This document shows, piece after piece, positions 45,301-64,000 of a DNA stretch of 64,000 nucleotides; the first letter of the stretch is position 1; every line of letters starts with the position of its first letter. The notes beneath the pieces are model-generated. The model saw only the letters and a program-made list of their open reading frames with translations, did not search any database and was not told the origin of the DNA. A program made the position numbers and the translations under genes. Source of the stretch: Bacteroidota bacterium (GTDB taxonomy: Bacteria > Bacteroidota > Bacteroidia > Bacteroidales > GWA2-32-17); contig JBBIRU010000016.1 of assembly GCA_037441645.1 (NCBI GenBank), forward strand, positions 67,042 to 131,041. The letters are read 5' to 3'.

Positions 45301-48300
45301 TTTGTTAGAATACGGAACATATACCGTTTCGTCAAAAGAATAATACCTGTTATCTGCAATAATCCTGAAATGAACTGCAAAATTACCTCTGTATTCTTCT
45401 TTTACCGGAATATCAATCAGTACCTGCCCATTGCTTATTTTCAACCATTTCTTTAATATTATTATTTCATTTTTATGTTCCACTTCATATAATACATACG
45501 CATTTGGGTAACTACTGCCAACAAGGAATTTAGCCGATTCGCCGGGTTCGCAATCATGTTTCACCGATACTGACCAGAAGGGGGTTGCATAAGGCAGGTG
45601 TTCAGATTTTTCGGAATATACAACTATGTATTTTTTATTAATGACCTTTTTTCCAAAGGAATCGACTGAGTTCATATTAATAACATATCGTCCCGGATCC
45701 CATTTCGAAAGATCTTTAATTACAAATTTTTCTTCTTTGTGGGTGTCAAATGAATATTCAAATACCTGCTTAATTGTTTTTGATTTTGATAAATCAGATT
45801 CAGCCTGATACACATTACCGGGGAATAATTTATTCCATTCGTCTTTCGTATAGCTGTATTTATCTGGTTTCTGCCAGAGTCTGCTCCGGAGTATTTCTTT
45901 CTCATCCTCCAGTTTTGAAATGGTAATTTTCCCTGCAGCGCCAACTTCTTCACCATTTAAATTGGTAGTATAAATATGAAATTTCTGGGTATCGGCAGCA
46001 TTTACCATATCAGGAATGGAAGAACTGATTTGCAAGGTAGTGTAGCCAACCGTAACCGATCCTGACGATGACTGGGTTTCCCCATTAATGTCTGTTATAT
46101 CAATATATACCTGGTAATCGAAATCAGTATAATCATCTGCTTTAAATGACAGATCCGGAACTGCCTTAAATTTAAACCTGACTTCTCCTTTTTCGTCAGT
46201 TTTTAATTTTCCGTTAATAATTTCAACTGAAGTTTGCCTGAAAGGTCTCCACCACCATCCGCGCCACACAGGTGTGCGAACAACCCGGTAAGTAACCTGT
46301 GCATCAGAAATACTTGGCCCTGAATAGGCAGTTCCTTTTGCCACCACTTCAACCGAATCGCCAACCCTGTAACTCCCGTTAAATGGCAATACTTCCGTGA
46401 TAAATTTCGGACGTTTGTATTCTTCTACCGAAATACTTTGTGAACCGTATGGGGTCACTAACTGAAATAATCCATTCAGCAATCCCTGCGGTATTTGTAA
46501 TGTTCCGCTAAAAGTACCGAATTCATTTGTTACCTGATTTACTTCCTGAACACTTTGGTAGTTAGGATCTTTAAACGACAGCGTAGTGGAGAAATTTTTT
46601 GCGATATTACGGTTGTCGCCATCAACTTCAACTACCACTCCTTTATAATAAACCGTTTGTCCGGGACGATATATCGCCCTGTCGGTAAAAAGAATAATTG
46701 AATAAGTTTTAGGTCTTTCATTATTGTACCTGTAATTATAAAAATTCTGTTTGGTTTTTAAAGTTTGTTTATTCCAGTGAAATTCAAGTCCTGTATTATA
46801 AACATCTTTATCATACTTAAGTAAAACTGAGGCAAAACCATTTTCATCGGTGGTGTGAGTATCACCTTTATTAATTACATATTTCCTGGTTAAATAGTTA
46901 TACTTAGAGAAATATTCCTGAACTATCACTCCCTGCAATGGTTCCCCGGTTTTTCTATGAGCCACATAAACCTGGTATGTACCATCTTCCATCCTTCGTT
47001 TCATATAGCTTATATCAGTAACCATTATATCATTATAAGCCATGGCATCATTATCATAATTGAATTCTTTGTTCTGGGAAACAAAAATAACATAGTGTCC
47101 AAAGGGCAGTGTATCTCCTATAAATTCAACAGAATGGTTGTTATAATCATTGTCCTCAGGCAATGGAACTTCATAATTCTTGATTACTTTTACTGCTTTC
47201 ATCAATTTACCGACATATTCCACTCCATAATTATTTTCGGCCAGTTTTTCATACTCTTCAATATCGATGGATGCAATACGAATCCAGGCTTTTTTCAGGT
47301 TCAGGTAGTTCAGCTTAATTGCATATGGTTTGCCTGGATTTATAACATCTTCCGTTTCAAATGAAATGGATTTGTTTTCAATCTGTTCTTTCAGATTTTC
47401 ACATTTTAATGTACCACTGGCTTCCGGATATTTCTGAATCATCTTAAGGCAAATATCCATGGCCTTATTTTTATAATTTTTAAATTTAAATGTGGTTGAA
47501 TCTTCATAGTTATAGCCCGACGAAAGAGTGTTATACAGGAAAGCTAACCTGTATGATGCTTCTGATACAAATGGAACATCTTCGTACTTTTTACAGATTG
47601 ATTTTAATGATTCGATATACAGGCTGTCCTTTTCAGGATTTACCGAATTAAAATAAACAAAGTTCAAACGAGCCAGATCGGCATCAATAAAGGCTTCGGG
47701 TTTAGCATCGCGGATGTGGAAATCGAGCAGTTTCTGCAATACTTTTATTCCATAGAACTGTAATGAAAGAGTATCTGAATTCTGAAAATTCTGTTTCACA
47801 AATTCTCCTGCGTTACTAAAATAAAAATCTTCTTTCAATTCAAATTTATCGACAGGCCGGGAAAGGGCAATTTCTTTGTTAGAAAAAAACTCAACTGCCC
47901 TGAACGCCAGAAAATCATATAATGTTGGTCTCAAACCATCGGTACCCTGGCCTTTGTTTAGAACAGCTTCTACTTCTGTAACAAGGGTCCGTTTTAAACT
48001 GTCTTCACTTTCGAGCGATTTCATATAATGCTTAATACAAACATCAGCCAGCTTATTCAAATCCCATGTTTTTATATCATTATTAACAAAGTTGACGGTT
48101 TCGCTACGGTTTGAAAATTTCCAGCGATTATTCTGATAATACATCCAATATAAACTGGCAGATATAGAATGAAAAACAGAATTATAGGGATAGTGCATTA
48201 TTTCTGCATCTTTCGCCAGATCTGTAACTATTTTTTCGAAAGCATCTTCCTCGATGGCATTTCTATATTTCAACTGGTAAATACGGGCCTTTACAACCTG

Positions 48301-48549
48301 GGCTGCATTCTTCTCGGCAAATGCTTTTTTATAGATCTTATCGACTATTTCCAGAGCCGATTTTGGCAATCCCTTGGAATCGAGACTGTCTACAGTTGCC
48401 CAATCTTTCCTGTAATCATTTGAGTTTGCAAAATGAAGGGGCTTGTCGATAGGTCTGGGATTTATTCTTTTCATACTTATTCCGGCTATTACAATTGAAA
48501 ACAGAAGGATTGCAGAAGCCAACAGGGGCATAAATTTATTCGTTTTCAT
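42382..48549 (-). CDS. Alpha-2-macroglobulin family protein (2055 aa) with intact thioester motif
   Basis: N-terminal signal-anchor and a helical N-terminal extension. Macroglobulin-like repeats. Low-complexity bait-like segment ('YYYSGNYYGYGGYEESRGN...DKRDEGSGN') directly before 'RTNLNETAFFYP'. Thioester 'YPYECSEQ'. C-terminal receptor-binding-type domain. Confidence 0.9.
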   Translation of the reverse strand: MKTNKFMPLLASAILLFSIVIAGISMKRINPRPIDKPLHFANSNDYRKDWATVDSLDSKGLPKSALEIVDKIYKKAFAEKNAAQVVKARIYQLKYRNAIEEDAFEKIVTDLAKDAEIMHYPYNSVFHSISASLYWMYYQNNRWKFSNRSETVNFVNNDIKTWDLNKLADVCIKHYMKSLESEDSLKRTLVTEVEAVLNKGQGTDGLRPTLYDFLAFRAVEFFSNKEIALSRPVDKFELKEDFYFSNAGEFVKQNFQNSDTLSLQFYGIKVLQKLLDFHIRDAKPEAFIDADLARLNFVYFNSVNPEKDSLYIESLKSICKKYEDVPFVSEASYRLAFLYNTLSSGYNYEDSTTFKFKNYKNKAMDICLKMIQKYPEASGTLKCENLKEQIENKSISFETEDVINPGKPYAIKLNYLNLKKAWIRIASIDIEEYEKLAENNYGVEYVGKLMKAVKVIKNYEVPLPEDNDYNNHSVEFIGDTLPFGHYVIFVSQNKEFNYDNDAMAYNDIMVTDISYMKRRMEDGTYQVYVAHRKTGEPLQGVIVQEYFSKYNYLTRKYVINKGDTHTTDENGFASVLLKYDKDVYNTGLEFHWNKQTLKTKQNFYNYRYNNERPKTYSIILFTDRAIYRPGQTVYYKGVVVEVDGDNRNIAKNFSTTLSFKDPNYQSVQEVNQVTNEFGTFSGTLQIPQGLLNGLFQLVTPYGSQSISVEEYKRPKFITEVLPFNGSYRVGDSVEVVAKGTAYSGPSISDAQVTYRVVRTPVWRGWWWRPFRQTSVEIINGKLKTDEKGEVRFKFKAVPDLSFKADDYTDFDYQVYIDITDINGETQSSSGSVTVGYTTLQISSSIPDMVNAADTQKFHIYTTNLNGEEVGAAGKITISKLEDEKEILRSRLWQKPDKYSYTKDEWNKLFPGNVYQAESDLSKSKTIKQVFEYSFDTHKEEKFVIKDLSKWDPGRYVINMNSVDSFGKKVINKKYIVVYSEKSEHLPYATPFWSVSVKHDCEPGESAKFLVGSSYPNAYVLYEVEHKNEIIILKKWLKISNGQVLIDIPVKEEYRGNFAVHFRIIADNRYYSFDETVYVPYSNKLLKMSFETFRDKLLPGQQEEWKIKISGPKGEKVAAEMVAALYDKSLDALKANYWDFSVFPTYYMSLQLTPDLFSSGSSSQIVKNYKTYSSYPYQTYDQLNWFGFYYYSGNYYGYGGYEESRGNRHKGVALMAKTAAPPPSEMNGEYDEAEKSVDATGKLEQKERAVSDTTISDPFAADVDKRDEGSGNVKVRTNLNETAFFYPTLSTNENGEVIVKFTVPEALTKWRMMGFAHTQNLEYGFIGNELVTQKELMVIPNLPRFFRENDKMELSVKISNLTDKEMTGQSGLEFTDPITMKPVSGIIAKQDESKTFTASAKGNTTVTWALTIPEGINALAVKVVAVSGQFSDGEQSVVPVMSNRMMVTESLPLPIRGNQSKTFEFKKLIESGNSNTLRNFKYTLEFTSNPAWYAVQALPYLIEYPYECSEQLFSRYYANSLATHIANSSPKIKSVFDSWKNTPDSKALLSNLEKNQELKSVLLQETPWVLDAQDESQRKRNVGLLFDLNRMANEMQSALAKLEKAQSSNGGWPWFPGMPESRYITQHIITGFGHLQKLKVVDYNNDNKLRSMVTDGVKFLDEEIRDDYNNLLKYYSKEELQKKHIGSTQEQYLYCRSFYTEIPVPNKCKEAFDYFKGQAEKYWLTENKYLQGMMALGLHRYGSKTVPQDIIKSLKENSIDHEELGMYWKDVEAGYYWWNAPIETEALLIEAFDEISNDQKSVEEMKIWLLKQKQTQDWKTTKATVEAIYALLLKGVDLLADDQLVEIVVGNQVIDPKKTDGVNVEAGTGYFKTSWQGGEITPEMGKVKVTKNTQGVAWGAVYWQYFEQLDKITPHETPLKLKKELFVERLTSSGKVIEPLAAGAILKVGDKVIVRIELRVDRNMEFVHMKDMRAAAFEPMNVISTYKYQDGLGYYETTKDASTNFFMDYLPKGTYVFEYPLRTSFKGDFSNGITSIQCMYAPEFSSHSQGVRIKVE

Positions 48550-53050: not shown

Positions 53051-53089
53051 TTAAAAAATAAAAAAAGGTTTCATTTTATTGAAACCTTT
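53051..53089 (-). terminator. Rho-independent terminator closing the tetrahaem-FeS-NrfD unit
   Basis: 10-bp stem aaaggtttca (53064-53073) / tgaaaccttt (53080-53089). On the minus strand it is followed by TTTTTTTATTTTTT. Confidence 0.65.
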
Positions 53090-53125
53090 TACATTACTAA
53101 TTATTTATTTTTATACATAAATGAA

Positions 53126-54325
53126 TTATTCATGTTCAATATGTGGTGCTTTTTTCCAGGGTGGCAGTAACCATAAAAGAACGGATAATATTATTAATGG
53201 AACTACAATCCATATCATAGCCATTAAAAATCCTTCTTTACCTATCAGATCTAATTTAAAATCAGTGAATCCATAGAAACTCTTTGAAAATAACTGACCG
53301 CCTATTACTACGTTCCATCTCATAAAGAATATTCCAACTAAAACAAATCCTGCAATAATAAAATAAAAGAATTTGCGAATATTTTCTTTAGGTTTTATAA
53401 ATTGGAATGTGCCCAGTGTAACTAAAGGAATTAGTGTTCCTATTAATCCTTGCATTATGAAAAATGTAAAGAATAATTTACCATGTACTAAAAGATTAAG
53501 TATATCAAAAGATTCTTCAGCTACATAAATTCTGTGAATCTGATCCAAACCTTCAAGAACAAAGTCAATAACAAGAATAAAGAATAAGTATTTTCCAATG
53601 GCATCGAGACAAACTATGTCGAGTTTTTGTTTCCTTAAAAAATTTACTACCATATAGATAAACATAACCAGAGCAATACCGGAGACCATAGCAGAAAAAA
53701 GAAAAATAACAGGCATCATAACTGTGGACCACCATGGATTTGCTTTTATTGACCCAAAAATAAAACCGACATATCCATGAAGAAGGAAAGCCGACGGGAT
53801 ACCGACTACCGTTATAAAATACCCAAGTTTATTGTCAGTTTTACGCGATAATGGCGAAGTATCTTTAATCCCCAGGGTAAGAATTTTATAAAGAAAAGTT
53901 TTAAACCCTTTCTTTTCTTTTGACCATATAGTCATATCGTATCTGTAATCAAACCATATCTCTAACAACAATACAACCATCAGGTACCATAAATACACAA
54001 AACCAAAAATAGCCATGGCAGAGGTAAGATGTGGTGTGGTCATTATCTCATATGCCCGCCAGGGAACTCCCAAATGATTAATTAATGGCATGGTTGCAAC
54101 AAGCATAAAGGAAAGTGCAGTAAGAAGAGATAACTCATAAGTTGGCTTTAATGCCTGAACATTAAAAACCCTGTTTAGAGATGCCAGAATAAAAGCACCG
54201 GCAACCAATCCTGTTATATATGGATAAAGAACAATGAGAATTGACCAGTTTAATTCTATCTCGTTCGGATAGCAGAAGCCATCCATATGGGACATAGCTT
54301 CATATAATGATTTAAATTCTTCCAT
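53126..54325 (-). CDS. NrfD/PsrC-family polytopic membrane (quinone-interacting) subunit
   Basis: 399 aa of hydrophobic helices throughout. The start lies 1 nt after the stop of the FeS subunit gene. Composition and context match NrfD/PsrC/DsrP-type subunits. Confidence 0.8.
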   Translation of the reverse strand: MEEFKSLYEAMSHMDGFCYPNEIELNWSILIVLYPYITGLVAGAFILASLNRVFNVQALKPTYELSLLTALSFMLVATMPLINHLGVPWRAYEIMTTPHLTSAMAIFGFVYLWYLMVVLLLEIWFDYRYDMTIWSKEKKGFKTFLYKILTLGIKDTSPLSRKTDNKLGYFITVVGIPSAFLLHGYVGFIFGSIKANPWWSTVMMPVIFLFSAMVSGIALVMFIYMVVNFLRKQKLDIVCLDAIGKYLFFILVIDFVLEGLDQIHRIYVAEESFDILNLLVHGKLFFTFFIMQGLIGTLIPLVTLGTFQFIKPKENIRKFFYFIIAGFVLVGIFFMRWNVVIGGQLFSKSFYGFTDFKLDLIGKEGFLMAMIWIVVPLIILSVLLWLLPPWKKAPHIEHE

Positions 54326-54326
54326 A

Positions 54327-55091
54327 CTAATGTACCTCCTGACTTAATGAATTATAATAGAGTTTTGATCCTGTATTTAAATTTGGTTTTAAAACGGCCA
54401 CGTTATGGTTTTTAATAAATTTAACCAATTCACTTTTAGGATCGCGCAAATCACCATAAATCCTTGCACCGGTAGGACATACCATCATACAGGCAGGATC
54501 CAATCCTTTTTTAACTCTATGGTAACATAATGTACATTTATCTACCGTTCCCAGGTCAGGTTTAATATACCTGCAACCATAAGGACATGCCTGAACACAA
54601 TAACGACATCCGACACAATAATTTGGATCTGCTAGCACGAAACCATCGGGCGTTTCAAAAGTAGCACCTACCGGACAAACCTGAACACAAGGAGATTTCG
54701 CACAATGATTACACATTTTTGGAACATAGAAAGTTTTAAATATCTCTGATTCAGGTACCGGTTGTTTATAACCATCAATACCGCCATTGGGAGATTGAAC
54801 TTTTACTTCGCCGCTATTTGTAATAGTATATTGTTCAACCCAACTTCTAAAAAAGAAGGGTTCTTTAGGAACATCATTTTCAGCTTTACAGGCACGGGCA
54901 CAACTGGCACAACCAATACATTTTTCGATATCTAATCCGATACCATACCAAGGGCCGTCTCCTTTAGGTTCCTGCGAAGCGTATACTGCTTTCAGCGGAT
55001 TGAGCAGGGATGCAAATAATACACCTCCAGCTATAGCTCCAGATTTTTTAAAAAAATCTCTTCTTGAAAAATTTTCTTTTTCTTTTACCAT
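54327..55091 (-). CDS. Tat-exported four-cluster [4Fe-4S] ferredoxin subunit (NrfC/PsrB/HybA/DsrO type)
   Basis: 254 aa. Twin-arginine signal 'SRRDFFKKSGAIAGG'. Cys groups 'CIGCASCARAC', 'CNHCAKSPCVQVCP', 'CVGCRYCVQACP' and 'CTLCYHRV...ACMMVCP'. Confidence 0.9.
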   Translation of the reverse strand: MVKEKENFSRRDFFKKSGAIAGGVLFASLLNPLKAVYASQEPKGDGPWYGIGLDIEKCIGCASCARACKAENDVPKEPFFFRSWVEQYTITNSGEVKVQSPNGGIDGYKQPVPESEIFKTFYVPKMCNHCAKSPCVQVCPVGATFETPDGFVLADPNYCVGCRYCVQACPYGCRYIKPDLGTVDKCTLCYHRVKKGLDPACMMVCPTGARIYGDLRDPKSELVKFIKNHNVAVLKPNLNTGSKLYYNSLSQEVH

Positions 55092-55531
55092 AACACAGGA
55101 TTATGAGAATTATGACAACTTATACATTCATCTTCTTTATTATGCTCTTCTATATCAATTTGTTTTATGACTTTTGCACGGGCCGGGTTTTTAGCATGAC
55201 ACCTGCCGCAAAATTCGCGGGTGTGTTCTTTTACAATATTCGTTTTTTGAGGATCGTCTACATGTTTGTAACCGGGGCCATGACATGTCTGACAGTCTAT
55301 TGACTTATGAACACTGCTATCTTTAACAGCTGCAATTGAATCGTGACATGTAACGCATGTTTCATTCATGTTTACATACTTAATGGGCCTGTCTTCATTT
55401 TCCTTTAATGCATCGCCCCTGTAATGGCCATATTCACCAAAACTAGCCGGTCTTAAAAAATGACGGGCAACCAGAAATAATGCAATAAAGACCGCAAATG
55501 CAATCAGAAGTCTTTGTACTTGAACTGGCAT
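55085..55531 (-). CDS. Membrane-anchored tetrahaem cytochrome c (c3/NrfB-like small multihaem)
   Basis: 148 aa with an N-terminal hydrophobic anchor. Four CXXCH motifs: CVTCH, CQTCH, CGRCH, CISCH. Overlaps the FeS gene by 7 nt. Confidence 0.88.
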   Translation of the reverse strand: MPVQVQRLLIAFAVFIALFLVARHFLRPASFGEYGHYRGDALKENEDRPIKYVNMNETCVTCHDSIAAVKDSSVHKSIDCQTCHGPGYKHVDDPQKTNIVKEHTREFCGRCHAKNPARAKVIKQIDIEEHNKEDECISCHNSHNPVLW

Positions 55532-55710
55532 ATATCTATGTATTTAAATATTTGATTAAAAACACAATTCGAGAACTTTACAAAAATGCCTTATGTTATA
55601 AAACATTTTTATTATCGCAAACATAATTGATTTTTTGCCTTACCTAAAAAAAAATAATAAATATTTTCACTTGAATGCCCCATTTTAGAAACATTATAAA
55701 TAAACAATAT

Positions 55711-55744
55711 GAAAAAGAAAAGATTGACATAAAGCCAATCTTTT
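55711..55744 (-). terminator. Hairpin terminator after the heptahaem cytochrome gene
   Basis: 9-bp stem aaaagattg (55718-55726) / caatctttt (55736-55744). On the minus strand it is followed by CTTTTTC. Confidence 0.5.
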
Positions 55745-55773
55745 CAAAATTATTAAAAATTTATAACTGCTAT

Positions 55774-57276
55774 CTAGAACATTTCAAAATGACATTCAGA
55801 ACAATTGGTTGATTTCCATTCTTCACCAACATCTACCGGGTGGATAAATTCCATGGTGCTGTTAATAGGTGCATATTTCATTGAATCCCTCTGGCCCTGC
55901 CCGATTATTGAATGGCACAAATTACAATCTTTGGAAATAACTTTTCCATCGGAACTTTTGTGTTTATCATCGTGACAACGGAAACAACCTTTATTTTCAA
56001 AATGACCAATATTTCTCGGATACTGCTTATAGCTTACTTTCATCTCGGGAAATGTATTATATGAGAATGCTTCCTGTACCGCTGTAATCGCTTTCTTAAT
56101 CTCCTTCTCATATTTGGAAAACAAATCAGGATATCCGTCTTTATAGTATTTTATCATTTGATCGTTTATTCCCATAAAAGCCGAATCTTTGGTAGAATAA
56201 GTGTCATTAGTAGCTTCCATAGCAGCGCTTTTAAGATAGGGAACTTTTGTTGATATCTTATTACCGGCAAATAATCCGTTCACATATTTCGGTGGAGAAA
56301 AATATTCGTGGGATGGGCGATTATGGCAGTCCATACAATCGAACATACGTTTTTCAGAATTCTCTAATTCCTTTGCATTCGGGTGTATAGAAGTATCTTC
56401 CTCCAGGAAAATAATTTCTTTTCCTGTTTGTTTATTAAAATATCTAACCCAAGGTATTGTCTGTCTTTTTTCATCAGCCTGATACGAGATTTCTACATCA
56501 GGGTTAATGTGCCAGTGTATTCCTTCAGTATTACCAAGTGATGAGTGGTCGGCTCCAATTCTCATCTTCATAATAACATCCCATTCGGTATTGGCAGAAT
56601 CGGCCAGGTAATATTTTTCATTCCTGATTTTGTTTGTATAAAATTTCTGTGGCCAGTGACATTTTTCACATGTTTCGCGGGCAGGGCGCAGGTTAGCAAT
56701 AGGTGTTTCTATGGGTCTCGGATAAGTGCCTAATAAATATTTGTATACCTGGCGTAACCCTGACATTTTTGATTTTACATAAAAATCGGCTCCTTCACCC
56801 ACATGGCATTCGGCACATTTAACACGGGCATGAGGTGAATGCTGATATGCAATATATTCAGGTTCCATAACTTTATGACAAAGCTTGCCGCAAAACTCTA
56901 CTGATTCGGTATAATGAAATCCTTTATAGCTACCAATTACAGTTGCAATAACAAAGAATATTGTAACAATGATAAAAATCGTAATCGCATTTCTTGTTTT
57001 GGAATCTTTTAAATTTATAATTAAAAGTTTTTCATCAGATACCGGCAAACCTTTTTTAAGTTTCCGTTTCTTTAAATACATACCGGCAGGTATCAGCACT
57101 AGGCCAAACACCAAAAAACCCGGGGTAACCAAATATGCAAACAATTCGAAATAAACATTATCTGCATTAAAGAAATTTAACTGGATAACAAAAAAGATAA
57201 TTGCAAACGTTGCAATTAAAGCAATTATAGTTCCCAGGTAGGAAATGTAATTGTAATACGTCCGTGGTAGTTTCAT
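55774..57276 (-). CDS. Inner-membrane heptahaem cytochrome c with NapC/NirT-like region and three TM helices (ImcH-like architecture)
   Basis: I prefer the ATG at 57274-57276 ('MKLPRTYYNY...') because the track start is TTG. Three N-terminal hydrophobic helices. Seven CXXCH motifs: CGKLCH, CAECH, CEKCH, CMDCH, CFRCH, CNLCH, CSECH. The first pair, 'FCGKLCHKVM...HARVKCAECHVG', resembles the NapC/NirT quinol-dehydrogenase motif. Confidence 0.85.
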   Translation of the reverse strand: MKLPRTYYNYISYLGTIIALIATFAIIFFVIQLNFFNADNVYFELFAYLVTPGFLVFGLVLIPAGMYLKKRKLKKGLPVSDEKLLIINLKDSKTRNAITIFIIVTIFFVIATVIGSYKGFHYTESVEFCGKLCHKVMEPEYIAYQHSPHARVKCAECHVGEGADFYVKSKMSGLRQVYKYLLGTYPRPIETPIANLRPARETCEKCHWPQKFYTNKIRNEKYYLADSANTEWDVIMKMRIGADHSSLGNTEGIHWHINPDVEISYQADEKRQTIPWVRYFNKQTGKEIIFLEEDTSIHPNAKELENSEKRMFDCMDCHNRPSHEYFSPPKYVNGLFAGNKISTKVPYLKSAAMEATNDTYSTKDSAFMGINDQMIKYYKDGYPDLFSKYEKEIKKAITAVQEAFSYNTFPEMKVSYKQYPRNIGHFENKGCFRCHDDKHKSSDGKVISKDCNLCHSIIGQGQRDSMKYAPINSTMEFIHPVDVGEEWKSTNCSECHFEMF

Positions 57277-57407
57277 TTTATAACTTATTATAGATTTAAC
57301 ATTTATAACTGAAAGCAAATGATTTTATATATTATCATATTTACCTATTCAGTAACGACAAATGTAGGACTGAGTTCCATTTTAAAAAATGCTTTAAAAC
57401 ATGTAAA

Positions 57408-57440
57408 CAAAAAAAGGGTGTTTCACAAGTGAAACACCCT
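57408..57440 (-). terminator. Strong rho-independent terminator after the beta-barrel gene
   Basis: Perfect 12-bp stem agggtgtttcac (57415-57426) / gtgaaacaccct (57429-57440). On the minus strand it is followed by TTTTTTTG. Confidence 0.75.
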
Positions 57441-57464
57441 TTTTACTTTTAGCATTGTTATTAA

Positions 57465-58346
57465 TTAGAATCTAACAGTAATATTAAAACCTATTAATAA
57501 AGTATTAAAATCTCTTTGATTATATAAGTAATTTTTTTGTGCAATTATATTATTATAAGTAGTTGCAAATAATTGAAATGCATGTGTTCCGGTATTTTTT
57601 TCAAGTCCAAATGCAAAACCCGGCTTAGGTGAACCTGGCACATCATTTCCATCAACATCTTTTGGATAGTCAAATGATTCAAGTGGTGAAACATAATTAA
57701 ATTCTCCCATAAATGATATTTCATTCCATATCTTAATTCTACCGCCTACGCTAACACCAATAGCATCATTAGAATATAAAGAATCCACTTTATTAAAATG
57801 TAAATAATAGGGTGCAACTTCTAATGAAATTCTTTCGCTAAACTTACGTGCAATAATAAGTTGATGAAAAGTAGATATACGATCTTTAAAACTATAGTTA
57901 TCTCCAAAATATGCTTCTTCTCTACCGCAAACAACTACATTGCCATAGTATGAAAGAAATATTGGCATTCCATTTTCTTTTTGCTGAAGTATCGAATATT
58001 TCCACATTAATTCCTGCATTTTATTAAATTTTTCGGAACCAAAACCAAGCATTAATTTGTCTGTAATACCATAATTAATTCCAAGTCTAATATTGGCAGG
58101 TCCATATAAACCAAATATATCACTTATACTTTTAATGGTTCCTATTCTGTGATGAATAATAAATTCTTTACCTTTCTTTTTAGGTTGAGTAATGGTTTGA
58201 TTTTCTATTAGCATAGTACATGCAAATGCATCTTCAACGGTTTTTTTTTCTTCTTTCTGAGCTTCTCCTTCTTGAGAAACAGCATATTTAACGCTGACAA
58301 TCAGCATCAAAGATAGAATGAACGATATTTTTTTTAACATAATCAT
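57465..58346 (-). CDS. Small outer-membrane beta-barrel protein (DUF5777-like) cotranscribed with a lipoprotein cytochrome
   Basis: 293 aa. Signal peptide 'SLMLIVSVKYAVSQ'. Alternating hydrophobic beta-strand pattern, C-terminal '...LLIGFNITVRF' (aromatic terminus) and a 'GTHAFQLFATT' motif. The family name is recalled from memory, not searched. Confidence 0.7.
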   Translation of the reverse strand: MIMLKKISFILSLMLIVSVKYAVSQEGEAQKEEKKTVEDAFACTMLIENQTITQPKKKGKEFIIHHRIGTIKSISDIFGLYGPANIRLGINYGITDKLMLGFGSEKFNKMQELMWKYSILQQKENGMPIFLSYYGNVVVCGREEAYFGDNYSFKDRISTFHQLIIARKFSERISLEVAPYYLHFNKVDSLYSNDAIGVSVGGRIKIWNEISFMGEFNYVSPLESFDYPKDVDGNDVPGSPKPGFAFGLEKNTGTHAFQLFATTYNNIIAQKNYLYNQRDFNTLLIGFNITVRF

Positions 58347-58374
58347 TTATTTATTTTTTATTGTTTTTAATATT

Positions 58375-59271
58375 TTACCAGCATGTTTTACCTGCTCCGC
58401 AATGAGCTGCAGTACCATTACTTGAGTATCCCATACCATTTGCCATTGTTCCTCCTTCACTAATATTGAGAGGTTTGAAAAAAGTACTTCCGTCAACATG
58501 ATACATGGTACCGTATGTACCTTGGTTGATAGGGCCATTAATATTTGTTTCATTTGTAGCATTAATAGAATGGCACCAGAAACATTGAACTCCATCCCAA
58601 TAAGGAGTGGAATATGGGGTTGTAGAAAAATTTTGAGTATTTGACATGTGTGCACTTTTTTGATGTGAACCGGATTCTGGATAATCATTTATAGTCATAG
58701 CATTAGGCCGTTCAACAAGGTAAGGAGACGTCATATTTCCTTTACCATTATGGCAAGAAGAACAAGCCGTTATTTTACCATTATCCCATCTTGGAGTTGT
58801 TGCATATTCTACGGTATCAAATGGAGGAGTTTGCATACTCCAGGTATAAGTTCCATCAGTTCCTCTGTCGGCGGTAACTCCGTTACTGTGGCAATAAACA
58901 TTTGAACAGGTTTTAGTGTCGGAATCCCACGTTGGAATATTACTATCAGCTCCATTTCTTGTTGCTAAACCATTAGGATCAAATGTGATATTTTTTACTG
59001 CATTCATGTGTGTTTTCGTATCCCATCCATGTCCATAATGACATGTTGTACAATTAAATGTATATAAACCCTTCGTATGTTTACTATGTGCATTAGTAGA
59101 ATGCAAAGGGAAGGTATTGTTATGACAATTTTCGCAAAAATCAGGTAAAACAATTTGCTCTGTAGAAGAATTATTATGTTTGATTTTCTCTTTTTCACAA
59201 GAGACTAAATAAATTACACTACCTGCTAAGAGCAATGTAAAAATAACAGTTTTAAAACTTTTTAACATCAT
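58375..59271 (-). CDS. Lipoprotein pentahaem cytochrome c with CX4CH...CXXCH (Geobacter-type) signature
   Basis: 298 aa with lipobox 'YLVSC'. Haem sites CENCH, CTTCH, CSNVYCH (CX4CH), CSSCH and CFWCH. Degenerate C-terminal 'HCGAGKTCW'. Ser/Thr/Asn/Gly-rich. Confidence 0.85.
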   Translation of the reverse strand: MMLKSFKTVIFTLLLAGSVIYLVSCEKEKIKHNNSSTEQIVLPDFCENCHNNTFPLHSTNAHSKHTKGLYTFNCTTCHYGHGWDTKTHMNAVKNITFDPNGLATRNGADSNIPTWDSDTKTCSNVYCHSNGVTADRGTDGTYTWSMQTPPFDTVEYATTPRWDNGKITACSSCHNGKGNMTSPYLVERPNAMTINDYPESGSHQKSAHMSNTQNFSTTPYSTPYWDGVQCFWCHSINATNETNINGPINQGTYGTMYHVDGSTFFKPLNISEGGTMANGMGYSSNGTAAHCGAGKTCW

Positions 59272-59419: not shown

Positions 59420-59462
59420 AAAAATAATAATAGCTTGAAAAGACTCTTCTTTTCAAGCTATT
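59420..59462 (-). terminator. Rho-independent terminator closing the Rrf2-ferredoxin-cupin-Bfd unit
   Basis: Perfect 14-bp stem aatagcttgaaaag (59429-59442) / cttttcaagctatt (59449-59462) with a 6-nt loop. On the minus strand it is followed by a T-rich ATTATTTTT. Confidence 0.7.
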
Positions 59463-59480
59463 AATTTACAATCATTTAAT

Positions 59481-59685: not shown

Positions 59686-60003
59686 TCATATCAAAAGCAT
59701 TTTAAATTTCTCGTTGGCATTAACTGCATGGGGCACATTTGCGGGCATAATAATAAAATTCCCTGTTTGAACCTGATAAGGAACCTTATTTATTATTATT
59801 TCCCCAACTCCTTCTACAACCTGAACTACTGCATCGAAGGGAGCGGAATGTTCGCTTAATCCCTGTCCTTTATCGAAGGCAAATAAAGTAAGGTTTCCGG
59901 TTTCCTTTTTTGTAACTATCTTACTTACAATTGCACCTTCTGAATATTCTACAGATTTTGCCAGATCGTAAATATTTGAATGCTGAAAAATTAATTCGTT
60001 CAT
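59686..60003 (-). CDS. Cupin-domain protein
   Basis: I prefer the ATG at 60003 ('MNELIFQHSN...'). Single cupin barrel ('GLSEHSAPFDAVVQVVEGVGEIII...GNFIIMPANVPHAV'). Confidence 0.8.
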   Translation of the reverse strand: MNELIFQHSNIYDLAKSVEYSEGAIVSKIVTKKETGNLTLFAFDKGQGLSEHSAPFDAVVQVVEGVGEIIINKVPYQVQTGNFIIMPANVPHAVNANEKFKMLLI

Positions 60004-60114
60004 ATGTTTATATTTTTTGTAACCAGTTTTTTTACAAACAGTGAGTTGTAATTCAGCAACTGGCAATCAGTAGAATATGCAACTGACTACTAATCACTTA
60101 TATTTACTTAAAAA

Positions 60115-60963
60115 TCACACCCACATTTCCTGCTCTATTTCTCCACTGATTTTTAAAATAACCAATTTAATGGGAACTTTCCGTGCAGCTTTCTCTACTG
60201 CCTGCTGGGCTATGCGCAATAACCCTCCGCAACAGGGAACTTCCATAATAGCTACTGTCAGGGTATTGATTTTAGCATCGTCAACCATAGCTTTGATTTT
60301 GTCAACATAAACTTCCATTTCGGAGTCAAGTTTCGGACAGGCAATGGCAATGGTTTTTCCTTTCATCATTTCGGGGTGAAAACTACCCATAGCAAAAGCA
60401 GTACAATCAGCTGCAATGAGTACATCCGCATTCTGAAAATAAGGCGCTCTCGGACTTACAAGGTGCATCTGAATAGGCCATTGTCTTAATTGTGATGAAA
60501 CTTTTCCTTCAAATGTTGTTTCTTCGTTTGTTTTATCCCTTAAATCAATTGTTTTTGCGCCGGGACATCCGCATTCTGAATGATTTTCCATGTTACTGTT
60601 ATTTTTTAGATTAATAATTATGTTGTTCTTTTTTAAATATTCCAATGCCTGATTATAAAATTGAATTTCACCATGATCTTTAAGATGGTTCAAATGTGCT
60701 TTTATAGTATTTTCACCTTGTTTGGAAATAATTTCCATAACTTTTACTTCATCGTAAGGTTCTGCTTCCCTTTCTTCAATAGTTATCGCACCTTCCGGAC
60801 AATGGCCCAAACATGCTCCCAACCCGTCGCAAAAAAGATCTGAGATTAATCTTGCTTTTCCATCAATAATCTGAAGAGCTCCTTCCTGGCAATTTGGAAT
60901 ACATAATCCACAACCATTACATAATTCTTCATCAATATTTACAATCTTTCTTTTCATTATCAA
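60115..60963 (-). CDS. 4Fe-4S dicluster ferredoxin-domain protein (FrdX-like, ~280 aa)
   Basis: N-terminal 'CNGCGLCIPNCQEGAL' and 'CDGLGACLGHCPEGAI' cluster motifs. C-terminal Cys-containing domain ('IAADCTAF','IACPKLD','VPCCGG'). Confidence 0.8.
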   Translation of the reverse strand: MIMKRKIVNIDEELCNGCGLCIPNCQEGALQIIDGKARLISDLFCDGLGACLGHCPEGAITIEEREAEPYDEVKVMEIISKQGENTIKAHLNHLKDHGEIQFYNQALEYLKKNNIIINLKNNSNMENHSECGCPGAKTIDLRDKTNEETTFEGKVSSQLRQWPIQMHLVSPRAPYFQNADVLIAADCTAFAMGSFHPEMMKGKTIAIACPKLDSEMEVYVDKIKAMVDDAKINTLTVAIMEVPCCGGLLRIAQQAVEKAARKVPIKLVILKISGEIEQEMWV

Positions 60964-60987
60964 TAAGTTGATTTTATAAATATTTTA

Positions 60988-61006
60988 AGTATTTAATTAC
61001 TCAAAT
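60988..61006 (-). promoter_or_regulatory. Operator-like motif AGTATTTAATTACTCAAAT upstream of the ferredoxin gene
   Basis: 18 of 19 nt are identical to 61467-61485. It contains the imperfect palindrome GTAtTTAAtTAC and lies 25 nt upstream of the start at 60963. Confidence 0.55.
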
Positions 61007-61049
61007 GTAATTATCTTTTTTATAATTTCCAAATAAAATCGATAAAAAA

Positions 61050-61448
61050 TTACAAGTATTGATCTATCGTTCTGGATTTCAGATAGTCCCTAAATTCATT
61101 GGTAAGATTAAAAACCTTATTGGTCATGATACACATACCAAAAGGACAGATTTCTTTCTCGAACATACATTCAGAAGATTCTATTTTGCCTTCGATTGCC
61201 TCATAAATATCCAAAAGGGAAACAGTTTTTATATCTTTTTTAATACTAAACCCTCCCTGAGGCCCCCTATGAGAATATAAAAATCCTGCTTTTACCAAAC
61301 GTTGCAACACTTTTGCAACATGATGTTTTGACGTGCTTGTTAGTTCAGCAATTTCCAAAACATTAATTTTACCATCCGAACGTGCAATAAGAATTATCCC
61401 ATGCAACGCTATTGACGCAGCCTCTGATATGTTGATTATTTTACTCAT
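61050..61448 (-). CDS. Rrf2-family transcriptional regulator (three clustered Cys; IscR/NsrR-like)
   Basis: 132 aa. wHTH 'LEIAELTSTSKHHVAKVLQRLVKAGFLYSHRGPQGGF' and a Cys triad in 'ECMFEKEICPFGMC'. Confidence 0.9.
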   Translation of the reverse strand: MSKIINISEAASIALHGIILIARSDGKINVLEIAELTSTSKHHVAKVLQRLVKAGFLYSHRGPQGGFSIKKDIKTVSLLDIYEAIEGKIESSECMFEKEICPFGMCIMTNKVFNLTNEFRDYLKSRTIDQYL

Positions 61449-61568: not shown

Positions 61569-64000
61569 ATGAAAACACTTTTATCAACTCTCATCTTTTC
61601 ATTTTTTTTAGTTAATTTAATAGTTGGGCAAGCCACTATTAACCTAACTCCAACAAACGTAAGTTGTTTTGGCAGTTGCTCCGGTTCAATTAATAATTCA
61701 GTTACCGGGGGAACTCCACCCTATAATTATACCTGGAGCAATGGAGCAACAACTCAGAACATTTCCGCATTATGCGCCGGAACATATACAGTTACAGTAT
61801 ATGATGCGTTAGGAATGCCTTCTAATAGTTCTGCCACTGTTTCAGAGCCGCCACAATTAATCAGCTCTATTTTATCTTCTTCAAATGTCTCCTGCTATGG
61901 TCTTTCCAATGGAACAGCTACTGCATATGCAACCGGAGGCGTACCGGGTTATACTTATTTATGGTCGAATTCTCAAACTACAGTAACAGCTACAGGATTA
62001 ACTGCCGGAACATATTCGGTTACAGTACATGACGTAAATTTATGTCAATCTGTTTCTACCGTAACCATTACTCAACCAACACAAATTAATTATACTACAG
62101 TTGCTTTAAATAATGTAACTTGTTCTGGAGGAAATGATGGATCATTTAATATTACAGTAACCGGTGGCGTTCCGGCCTATTCTTATAGCTGGACAGGGCC
62201 ATCGGGTTTTACTTCATCCACCGAAGATCAGACTGGTCTTCAGGCAGGAACTTATTATGTTACAATTACGGATGCCAGCGCCTGCAGTATTACCTCTTCT
62301 ATCAGCATTAATGTATCATCAACACTTACTTCCGGTATCTCATCTTTCACAGATGTTACCTGTAATGGAGGCTCCAATGGCTCCGCTACTGTAACTCCAT
62401 CAGGGGGAAACCCACCCTACACTTACCTATGGAACGATCCGGCTCCTGTCCAAACCACAGCAACATGCACAGGATTAACAGCAGGATCGTGGTCTGTAAC
62501 AGTTACAGATGCCAATAGTTGTACTTCAATTTCAACTGCAACAATTATTCAACCTCAGCCAATTACTGCCAATGCTGGTTTTGACCAAACTATTTGTGCA
62601 AATAGTACAATTGCTCTTAACGGATTTATTACTGTAGCAACAGGAGGTATATGGTCTTCAAGTGGTTCAGGTACATTTATTCCGGATAATATTTCATTGA
62701 ATGCAACCTATATTCCTTCAGCATCAGATATTCTTGCAGGAAATGTGATTCTTACTCTTACTACAACGGGTAATGGTTCTTGTAGTTCAGTTTCAGATAA
62801 TATTGTTATCACATTTTTGCCTTCACCTACAGCAACATTTACAGTGCAGTCTCCTATATGTGCAAATGATATATCATCTATTGTTTATACTGGAACAGGT
62901 GGGGTAGGTGATATTTATAACTGGAATTTTAGTGGAGCTATTCTGCTTTCGGGTGTTGCAGGTACTCCGGGGCCATTTACTGTTTCTTGGAATACAGCAA
63001 ATAATTATTTGGTTTCATTAGATGTAATGAGTATAAATGGTTGTTCTAATAACTATCAGGTTATTGCAACAGTAAATGACAATCCTACTGCAACTGGAAC
63101 AATAACCGGTTCAAGTTGCCTTAATAACGATGGAATTATTTCTATTATATGTAATGGAGGAACTGTACCATACTCATATCTTTGGACCAACCTGATGATT
63201 AATGATACGATTTCAGGATTATCATCGGGTATTTACTCACTAACAGTTACAGATGCTAATTCATGTACAACTACTGCAACTTATACTGTTCCTCAAATTT
63301 CTTTTAACGCAAACATAAATGGTTCTGCTTCCTATTCAGGAGGAAATATTCCTATGGGAGAAGCTGTTGCAAATTTATTTGTAGAATCGTCGGGAACAGG
63401 TTCGGCACAGTTTGATTCATTAACTTCTTCTTTCTTTACATCAACCGGCTTTAGTTTCTATAACCTTACACCGGGCAGATATCTTTTAGAAATAGTTCTG
63501 ACAAACCCTGCAAGCTATCCAACGCTTTTAAATACCTACTATAATAATCAGTACTTATGGACTTTGGCAGATACAATAAATCTGGTTTGTGATGACAATT
63601 TAACCTTACCTGTTCAAATGTATGAGATACCAGATACAATGAACGGGAATTGTAATTTAAATGGTACCATAATTCTGTGGTCAGGAAGTAAAGCTGTTGG
63701 CGAACCGGTACCCGGAGCAGAAATATTAATTGAACAGGAGCCCAATGATGTACCTATTCAGTCGGCATATACAGATATTAATGGAAACTACACTCTTCAG
63801 AATATCTCATCCGGAAACGGTTATCATTTACTCGTTGATATTCCCGGATTTCCATTGCTGTCAACATATCTTAATCTTACGATAAACACAACTGATACCT
63901 TACTAAGTAATCTCAATTTTTATTTAGATACAACTCTTGGCGGAGGAATCTTTATCGATACGGCAACCGGTTTTTCAAATCCTTTTGTTGAGTCGGGTAT
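61569..64000 (+). CDS. SprB-repeat cell-surface protein, 5'-partial (runs off the window; absent from the ORF track)
   Basis: I translated the frame from the ATG at 61569 by hand and found it open to 64000 (>810 codons). Signal peptide 'MKTLLSTLIFSFFLVNLIVGQ'. At least 5 units of 'NVSC.G..NG...v..tGG.pPYtY.W....T....gL.AGtY.VTV.Da..C'. A carboxypeptidase-regulatory-like segment follows ('GAEILIEQEPNDVPIQSAYTDINGNYTL'). Confidence 0.85.
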   Translation, partial: MKTLLSTLIFSFFLVNLIVGQATINLTPTNVSCFGSCSGSINNSVTGGTPPYNYTWSNGATTQNISALCAGTYTVTVYDALGMPSNSSATVSEPPQLISSILSSSNVSCYGLSNGTATAYATGGVPGYTYLWSNSQTTVTATGLTAGTYSVTVHDVNLCQSVSTVTITQPTQINYTTVALNNVTCSGGNDGSFNITVTGGVPAYSYSWTGPSGFTSSTEDQTGLQAGTYYVTITDASACSITSSISINVSSTLTSGISSFTDVTCNGGSNGSATVTPSGGNPPYTYLWNDPAPVQTTATCTGLTAGSWSVTVTDANSCTSISTATIIQPQPITANAGFDQTICANSTIALNGFITVATGGIWSSSGSGTFIPDNISLNATYIPSASDILAGNVILTLTTTGNGSCSSVSDNIVITFLPSPTATFTVQSPICANDISSIVYTGTGGVGDIYNWNFSGAILLSGVAGTPGPFTVSWNTANNYLVSLDVMSINGCSNNYQVIATVNDNPTATGTITGSSCLNNDGIISIICNGGTVPYSYLWTNLMINDTISGLSSGIYSLTVTDANSCTTTATYTVPQISFNANINGSASYSGGNIPMGEAVANLFVESSGTGSAQFDSLTSSFFTSTGFSFYNLTPGRYLLEIVLTNPASYPTLLNTYYNNQYLWTLADTINLVCDDNLTLPVQMYEIPDTMNGNCNLNGTIILWSGSKAVGEPVPGAEILIEQEPNDVPIQSAYTDINGNYTLQNISSGNGYHLLVDIPGFPLLSTYLNLTINTTDTLLSNLNFYLDTTLGGGIFIDTATGFSNPFVESG

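Follow-up and report, generated by a model that had tools for sequence, protein, structure and literature searches.

When a bacterial gene cluster encodes several quinol-linked cytochromes and an outer-membrane barrel, and no recognizable terminal reductase, the question that arises is where the electrons are delivered. Such a cluster is found in a 64,000-nucleotide stretch of DNA (hereafter the window) from a Bacteroidota bacterium (assembly GCA_037441645.1, contig JBBIRU010000016.1, positions 67,042 to 131,041 of the forward strand). Six open reading frames (ORFs), here termed A to F, all lie on the minus strand at positions 53126-59271 of the window, and a motif scan counts 16 haem-binding sites in their products. 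Both observations agree with an earlier reading of the same letters, the original prediction, which had proposed a complete multihaem conduit for extracellular electron transfer (EET) with a novel architecture. The genes fall into three units: A-B, encoding a lipoprotein cytochrome and a β-barrel of the DUF5777 family; C, encoding an inner-membrane cytochrome of the ImcH family; and D-E-F, encoding a tetrahaem cytochrome with iron-sulfur (FeS) and NrfD-type subunits. Profile searches returned the same domains as had been predicted (PF09698/TIGR01904, DUF5777, NapC/NirT, FeS and NrfD). We propose, with about an even chance of being right, that the three units are modules of a respiratory electron-transfer chain that has no terminal reductase and that directs electrons outward by EET.

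The missing reductase was central to the original prediction, and it is borne out in genes A-F and in the flanks that were covered. Among the ORFs annotated with Pfam (about 36-61.5 kb) or read by eye (1-21 kb) there is no molybdopterin subunit or known reductase, and the genes flanking the cluster in these segments are housekeeping genes; the segment from 21 to 36 kb, read from ORF sizes alone, may contain rpoB/rpoC and ribosomal-protein genes. None of the six proteins A-F has a CXXCK motif.

Proposed quinol oxidation at the inner membrane

ImcH is the Geobacter quinol oxidase that serves EET, and gene C (55774..57276, minus strand) has every sequence character by which this family is recognized. 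Homologues place its start at the ATG at 57276, giving a protein of 500 residues instead of the 514-residue ORF that begins with TTG; these homologues span 494-504 residues and align over 100% of the length. Hydropathy segments at residues 13-31, 45-63 and 97-115 predict three transmembrane (TM) helices, and seven haem motifs are present, namely a CX3CH (CGKLCH, residue 129) and six CXXCH (CAECH, CEKCH, CMDCH, CFRCH, CNLCH and CSECH), such that an N-terminal region of the NapC/NirT type is combined with c7-type motifs. By the published definition, ImcH proteins have 495-519 residues, three TM helices near the N-terminus and, in addition to six CX2CH motifs, an atypical CX3CH close to the TM domain (PMC6295460). 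In Geobacter ImcH the haem-1/menaquinol site has been proposed to consist of E127, H137, K173, Q179 and Y188 (bioRxiv 10.1101/2023.05.03.539133), and these correspond with identical spacing to E124, H134, K170, Q176 and Y185 of gene C. Furthermore, gene C is 53% identical to a protein of Melioribacter roseus that has been listed as an ImcH homologue (PMC6295460). The likeness to ImcH of Geobacter sulfurreducens (GSU3259) extends from the size of about 500 residues, the three N-terminal TM helices and the NapC/NirT-like region to the CX3CH by TM3, the six CXXCH and the spacing of the haem-1 residues; the difference is that the host of gene C is a member of Bacteroidota. Hence, by length, TM helices, haem motifs and site residues, gene C is a genuine member of the family. 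The three helices and seven haem sites of the original prediction also stand, with the correction that one of its seven CXXCH motifs is the CX3CH. In the proposed chain this protein would oxidize menaquinol at haem 1, beside the third TM helix, and release the electrons into the periplasm.

The D-E-F unit would provide a second entry point. Gene D (55085..55531, minus strand) encodes a cytochrome c with one anchor helix and four CXXCH motifs. Gene E (54327..55091, minus strand) encodes a Tat-exported FeS subunit of the PsrB/NrfC/DsrO type, with the signal SRRDFFKK, four 4-Cys groups for as many clusters, and a match to PF13247 at 1.7e-25. Gene F (53126..54325, minus strand) encodes an NrfD/PsrC-type integral membrane subunit expected to interact with quinol, with nine hydrophobic segments and a match to PF03916 (NrfD) at 4.1e-33. 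The D/E junction is an overlap of 7 nt, and a gap of 1 nt lies between E and F; these junctions, and the features of the three subunits, were all found as originally described. The nearest solved chain to gene E is PsrB (2VPW_B, 5e-45), and a PDB sequence search detected no relative of gene F. An NrfD subunit with a Tat-exported four-cluster FeS subunit is the combination that marks modules of the CISM type, and neither beside D-E-F nor among the annotated ORFs of the window is there a catalytic partner such as PsrA, TtrA, ArrA or NrfA. The unit was also considered as an equivalog of TtrBC, ArrB or NrfCD, and this was rejected because every NCBIfam score lies under its cut-off (for gene E, 179.6 bits against a cut-off of 200 for DsrO and 194 bits against one of 416 for TtrB).

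The NrfBCD, DsrJOP and PsrBC modules resemble D-E-F in having an NrfD subunit, a Tat-exported FeS subunit and a small multihaem cytochrome encoded by tightly coupled genes. D-E-F differs from them in that its cytochrome is tetrahaem and membrane-anchored, and in having no NrfA, DsrMK or PsrA partner. A precedent for the latter condition is the NrfCD of M. roseus, which likewise has no catalytic subunit and has been proposed to feed an outer-membrane Fe(III) reductase (PMC3534657). Gene D matches tetrahaem proteins encoded ahead of FeS and NrfD genes in three of the related loci described below (L008, L047 and L078) at 26% identity (E 6e-05), which points to a common architecture, an identity of this order not showing orthology. 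We picture D-E-F as a quinol:cytochrome c oxidoreductase in which electrons would pass from a quinol site in the NrfD subunit through four [4Fe-4S] clusters to the anchored tetrahaem cytochrome. Both C and D-E-F would then reduce cytochromes in the periplasm or at the outer membrane.

The DUF5777 barrel and its lipoprotein partner

Gene B (57465..58346, minus strand) starts 28 nt past the stop of gene A and encodes an outer-membrane β-barrel with a signal peptide and the C-terminus GFNITVRF; spacing and ending are both as first reported. It matches PF19089 (DUF5777) at 5e-63 and 213.1 bits (cut-off 23.1) over profile positions 1-247 of 247, and this is its sole Pfam match, there being no match in NCBIfam. 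An AlphaFold2 model built with 28 homologues (pLDDT 82.9, pTM 0.78) has 12 strands, with short turns alternating with long loops and a C-terminal Phe, consistent with the small barrel that had been predicted. Ahead of the first strand, residues 41-60 are modelled with pLDDT >90 and no regular secondary structure, which suggests that they are packed in the lumen and that the barrel is plugged rather than open.

MtrB, the barrel of the MtrCAB porin-cytochrome complex, has 26 strands. We considered gene B as an MtrB-type porin and rejected the assignment: it matches DUF5777 only and shares neither sequence nor Pfam relationship with MtrB-type porins, its model has 12 strands, and its Foldseek matches are confined to generic small barrels of the OmpG, NanC, Tsx, FapF and KdgM types with TM-scores of 0.4-0.65. 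Model and matches together point to a barrel too narrow to sheath a multihaem protein; the barrels of Mtr/Pcc complexes, which belong with MtrB, OmbB or the Ext porins and enclose a periplasmic multihaem cytochrome, are wide, with some 20-26 strands.

The family to which gene B belongs is large. A profile search of 1.84 billion representative proteins recovered 1290 DUF5777 clusters at 50% identity (E<1e-10), nearly all of whose members are stand-alone proteins of 270-320 residues; one protein, P0295 (615 residues), carries two DUF5777 barrels in tandem. In an alignment of 132 diverse members the best-conserved residues are H66, R67, G79, K116, Q122, P128, R156, R167/K168, H183, N185, H255 and F257, with H66, H183, H255, K116, R156, R167 and K168 conserved in 86-98% of them. 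To judge from the alignment, conservation of three histidines and several basic residues to this degree is unusual for a plain porin, and a role in cofactor binding or haem docking is possible.

A link between DUF5777 and cytochromes is provided by a natural fusion. In P0394 (407 residues) a class-I cytochrome c is joined to the N-terminus of a DUF5777 barrel (PF00034/PF13442 followed by PF19089), and the cytochrome domain shares 36-40% identity with the class-I cytochrome encoded at the end of FeS-NrfD operons. The fusion is encoded at L085:5457-7947, next to genes for a lipoprotein of the monohaem family that accompanies the barrel in related loci and for a Reeler-domain protein with a type IX secretion system (T9SS) tail and a CALCH motif. 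It shows that a DUF5777 barrel can be physically tied to a c-type cytochrome. In this respect the DUF5777 module resembles Cyc2 of iron oxidizers, a single polypeptide in which an N-terminal monohaem domain precedes a barrel: here too a small cytochrome goes with a small barrel, and in P0394 a monohaem cytochrome c and the barrel are truly fused. Among the differences from Cyc2, the fused domain of P0394 is a complete class-I cytochrome c, and the strand number of the DUF5777 barrel appears lower. In the window A and B are separate genes, and the cytochrome is a lipoprotein with five haem sites.

The partner of the barrel in the window, gene A (58375..59271, minus strand), encodes a 298-residue lipoprotein with the lipobox YLVSC, Glu at positions +2 and +4 from the lipidated Cys, and five haem motifs, four of them CXXCH (CENCH, CTTCH, CSSCH and CFWCH) and one CX4CH (CSNVYCH); the lipobox and the five sites had been read correctly from the start. 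Its scores are above the curated cut-off for both PF09698 (27.2 bits; cut-off 21.7) and TIGR01904 (37.3 bits; cut-off 27), the models of the GSu_C4xC__C2xCH domain (CX4CH...CXXCH), which was first defined in Geobacter. Homologues of gene A are rare, with 38 in 5.8 billion proteins. At the extreme C-terminus (58375-58407) there is an H-C-x5-C-W motif that is invariant in 31/31 aligned members of the family.

Among the related loci a homologue of gene A takes the place of a monohaem lipoprotein only in the closest relatives, L001-L006, whose barrels are 76-81% identical to gene B. The two lipoprotein families are brought together by hhalign at 86% probability, with the lipobox, a CEK motif and the first haem in register, and this fits gene A being an elaborated form of the usual partner. 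By these comparisons gene A is a rare, clade-specific replacement of the monohaem lipoprotein that ordinarily accompanies the barrel. The monohaem lipoprotein itself varies: a small upstream lipoprotein with no CXXCH is encoded in the Saprospiraceae loci L030, L037, L051, L052, L062, L069 and L071 and also in L023, and in L023, L030, L037, L051, L062 and L071 a CX4CH (CNISGCH or CAASSCH) stands at the position of the CXXCH.

The A-B pair thus has the gene arrangement of a porin-cytochrome system, a barrel gene lying 28 nt from a multihaem cytochrome gene. As in MtrCAB, the OmaB-OmbB-OmcB systems of Geobacter and the Ext clusters, the cytochrome is a lipoprotein, and as in those systems the pair is found near inner-membrane quinol oxidases and apart from any terminal reductase. 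In contrast to the Mtr/Pcc systems, the window encodes no periplasmic multihaem protein that might be inserted into the barrel, and has no MtrA- or OmaB-like gene. The route that electrons would take across the membrane must differ from that in Mtr/Pcc systems.

A conserved neighbourhood in related genomes

A scan of one genome per species showed that at least 545 stretches of DNA encode a relative of the barrel, and the best 80 loci (given L-numbers) were analysed. These come from different species of Bacteroidota or of Chlorobiota/Ignavibacteria type, represented by metagenome-assembled or single-cell genomes; ORFs were called with a simple caller and grouped by single-linkage BLAST clustering. 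One of the resulting groups, cluster 0, lumps CbcA-, CbcB- and CbcL-like proteins because fused proteins connect them.

Directly upstream of 78 of 83 barrel genes there is an ORF on the same strand, usually after a gap of 0-36 nt. A CXXCH motif is present in 69 of these 78 ORFs, and nearly all of them encode lipoproteins with a Glu after the lipidated Cys (SCEK or SCEY). The lipoprotein cytochrome family is represented in 76/80 loci and an ORF with at least three CXXCH in 78/80, which answers the concern, raised with the original prediction, that the barrel family might occur mostly without cytochrome neighbours. A second concern was that the related clusters might adjoin known reductases; there is no CXXCK (NrfA-type) multihaem protein and no Tat-signal protein of >600 residues in any of the 80 loci, and no recognizable terminal reductase recurs among them.

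A typical gene order can be recognized. It starts with a Crp/Fnr regulator (52/80 loci), a lipoprotein that has six haem sites and a Gly-X-Y stretch, the monohaem lipoprotein and the barrel, and continues with a seven-haem cytochrome bearing a C-terminal TM helix and a cytochrome b561 protein, which together have the CbcA/CbcB architecture. These are followed by a Tat-exported FeS protein, NrfD, a 297-residue protein without a Pfam match and a class-I cytochrome c. CbcA/CbcB- or CbcL-like genes are present in 59/80 loci, and in 52 of those such a gene is the next one downstream of the barrel; there a seven-haem cytochrome whose C-terminus carries a TM helix is paired with a four-TM cytochrome b561 as in Geobacter CbcBA. 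FeS and NrfD genes occur in 33/80 loci and the cytochrome-maturation gene ccsBA in 23/80, and 9/80 have an ImcH-like gene no more than 10 kb from the barrel, in varied positions and orientations. Hence, the module of monohaem lipoprotein and DUF5777 barrel adjoins CbcBA-, CbcL- and ImcH-like quinol oxidases, class-I cytochromes c and ccsBA.

Several loci encode further candidates for an extracellular location. The six-haem lipoprotein (L067:16371-17441, with equivalents in 49/80 loci) has a collagen-like Gly-X-Y stretch after the lipidated Cys and matches a model of MtrC/MtrF domain II/IV; it may be a stalked surface cytochrome. The barrel loci L009 and L012 encode a 1968-residue protein with 26 haem sites and a β-helix region, and also a T9SS-tailed NHL/PKD protein. 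Triads of an HmuY-like protein, a TonB-dependent receptor and another HmuY-like protein (clusters 12-19-12) recur with ccsBA near barrel clusters, for example in L043, L046, L019, L023 and L060, and these may serve haem supply for cytochrome synthesis.

In L002 the genes run Rrf2, ferredoxin-like, cupin, A, B, C, D, E, F, except that between B and C there are two CbcL-like cytochrome c-b561 fusions (L002:11409-17547, with equivalents in L001, L005 and L007). One of these, of 927 residues with 19 haems, directly follows the barrel gene in the closest relatives; the other, of 796 residues with 16 haems, is found in L001 and L002. Both resemble Geobacter CbcL. In the window, 188 nt (57277-57464) stand where the relatives carry the 19- and 16-haem fusions, and CbcBA- or CbcL-like genes, present in related genomes, are absent; the fusion genes were either lost in this genome or gained in the relatives.

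Three genes upstream of A-B in the window are also on the minus strand: a cupin gene (59686-60066; PF07883), a gene for a ferredoxin-like protein of 282 residues (60115-60963; Fer4 families) and a gene for an Rrf2 regulator (61050-61448; PF02082) with three cysteines arranged as C-x7-C-x4-C. The ferredoxin-like and cupin genes are found upstream of A-B in L002, L004 and L005 as well, and among the relatives the Rrf2 gene was detected in L002 only. The three genes (59686..61448) may form a sensing or regulatory unit. A terminator-like hairpin (59428..59463, minus strand; 16-bp stem and T run) lies 5' of A, between A-B and the cupin gene. Elsewhere in the window the largest ORF encodes 2055 residues (42382-48549, minus strand), and an ORF with a signal peptide at 61630-64000 on the plus strand runs past the window end, its product looking repetitive and β-rich by reading.

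Proposed direction and destination of the electrons

The reading we prefer is that electrons leave the quinone pool through C and D-E-F and that A-B, as the outer-membrane step, delivers them to an acceptor that is located at the outer membrane or outside it; examples would be Fe(III), Mn(IV), humic substances and conductive surfaces. A-B would here be the local variant of the Bacteroidota-wide module of monohaem lipoprotein and DUF5777 barrel, its 12-strand barrel paired physically with a pentahaem lipoprotein that would be held at the outer membrane or the cell surface. This outward EET reading passes every test that can be run computationally; the joint work of the three units, the direction of flow and the nature of the acceptor are inferred.

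Several observations weigh against it. In contrast to MtrB, a barrel of 12 strands cannot sheath a multihaem protein, and there is consequently no known mechanism that would account for electron passage across the membrane. Within the window there is no gene for a soluble periplasmic carrier, and sister genomes have giant cytochromes that are missing here, so that the word "complete" in the original prediction is not sustained. The AlphaFold2 model of A, built from 31 homologues, is unusable (pLDDT 41), and the sorting rules for Bacteroidota lipoproteins give no basis for calling A surface-exposed. In addition, every related locus is from an uncultured genome. Around the gene for the ImcH homologue of M. 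roseus, the 10 kb of flanking DNA on each side is free of cytochrome and barrel genes, a neighbourhood that is uninformative on the outer-membrane step, and the multi-omics paper on this organism does not mention outer-membrane cytochromes.

The linkage of the three units is itself loose. Each ends in its own terminator on the minus strand, at 57411..57444 for A-B (15-bp stem), 55717..55745 for C (12-bp stem) and 53063..53090 for D-E-F (11-bp stem), in each case with a T run. A terminator scan found 14 sites in the window as against 4.9 +/- 2.6 in shuffled sequence, and these three, which the original prediction had described as hairpins closing the units, are its top-scoring sites. The adjacency of A-B, C and D-E-F varies even among close relatives: D-E-F is missing from L001, and L003-L006 have A-B and neither C nor D-E-F within the recovered DNA (L003, L004 and L006 being whole, short contigs), and in L001 and L002 B is separated from C by roughly 7 kb that holds other genes. 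This variation, together with the solitary ImcH homologue of M. roseus, would be expected if the units were chance neighbours that serve different pathways. Such an account has in our view a very poor chance of being correct: in L002 the order A-B...C-D-E-F is retained despite the insertions, FeS and NrfD genes recur at the frequency given above, and the 9 loci with an ImcH-like gene within 10 kb of the barrel compare with about 0.4 expected (an estimate for a single-copy gene in a 4-Mb genome). Given the state of L001 and L003-L006 on the one hand and of L002 on the other, the clustering is recurrent, not fixed.

Two other accounts differ on where electrons come from or go to. In the first, the barrel-cytochrome module would take electrons up, in the manner of Cyc2 or PccH, with Fe(II), a cathode or else a partner cell as the donor, and class-I cytochromes would carry them either to oxidases or, uphill, to the quinone pool. 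The pairing of a monohaem cytochrome with a barrel and the fusion in P0394 echo the layout of Cyc2; 10 of 27 monohaem lipoproteins match the Pfam model of PccH (best 5.6e-05); the class-I cytochromes of the barrel loci match a domain of the cbb3-subunit-III type; and many loci, by their record names, come from stratified lakes and aquifers. Moreover, CbcL/MtoC-type proteins occur in iron reducers and iron oxidizers alike (PMC6295460). Against uptake, the window carries ImcH, so far reported only from Fe(III) reducers (PMC6295460), the partner of its barrel is pentahaem, not monohaem, the Pfam similarities are weak, and the window has no oxidase gene, nor does one recur among the 80 loci; we consider a reversed flow distinctly improbable. 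The other account would make the system a periplasmic hub whose acceptor or stressor is soluble or diffusible, for instance peroxide, a quinone, chelated Fe(III) or a sulfur or nitrogen species, with the barrel as a substrate-specific channel or outer-membrane dock and the lipoprotein cytochrome as a periplasm-facing reductase. The nearest solved folds to gene B are indeed small solute-specific channels (NanC, Tsx, OmpG and KdgM-type), the cytochrome of P0394 is joined at the barrel N-terminus, which is periplasmic in ordinary barrels, the three-Cys Rrf2-family regulator is encoded upstream beside the ferredoxin-like and cupin genes, and Geobacter needs ImcH for soluble Fe(III) citrate as well (bioRxiv 10.1101/2023.05.03.539133). 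The lumen of B, with residues 41-60 modelled as a plug, seems ill suited to a channel, however; there is no haem motif of a catalytic type such as CXXCK; and the T9SS-tailed and giant multihaem β-helix proteins of some loci point outside the cell. We regard this account as unlikely, if somewhat less so than electron uptake.

Returning to the outward EET reading, the question of what is new in it concerns the outer membrane. ImcH and CbcL/CbcBA homologues have been reported from Bacteroidota before (PMC6295460; bioRxiv 10.1101/2021.04.15.440034), and CbcBA homologues in Bacteroidetes have been proposed as EET markers in a study in which the barrel and lipoprotein are unmentioned (bioRxiv 10.1101/2021.04.15.440034). 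A full-text literature search retrieved no paper mentioning DUF5777, and in the literature on Bacteroidota porin-cytochromes, Prolixibacter, CbcBA and Cyc2 we found no description of a DUF5777-lipoprotein module. A published search for EET porins used models of the MtrB, OmbB and Ext types and required at least 14 strands (PMC7399161), and would therefore have missed DUF5777. Hence, the novelty claimed in the original prediction holds for the outer-membrane DUF5777-lipoprotein module and not for the whole chain. A bolder proposal, which we offer tentatively and think rather doubtful at present, is that DUF5777 and its lipoprotein cytochrome form a mechanistically new class of outer-membrane conduit across Bacteroidota. 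In this class a 12-strand barrel, its lumen plugged and several of its His, Arg and Lys residues conserved, would couple a periplasmic class-I cytochrome c to a lipid-anchored cytochrome facing the surface, without the sheathed multihaem wire of Mtr/Pcc systems.

If true, this would pose a new biophysical problem, namely the passage of electrons through a 12-strand barrel, and would make DUF5777 a phylum-wide genetic marker of extracellular redox metabolism. It could explain the exchange of electrons with solids by the many Bacteroidota that become enriched in anoxic habitats rich in iron and on electrodes, and would lead to iron, manganese and humic cycling being reassigned among the organisms of lake, aquifer and sediment metagenomes.

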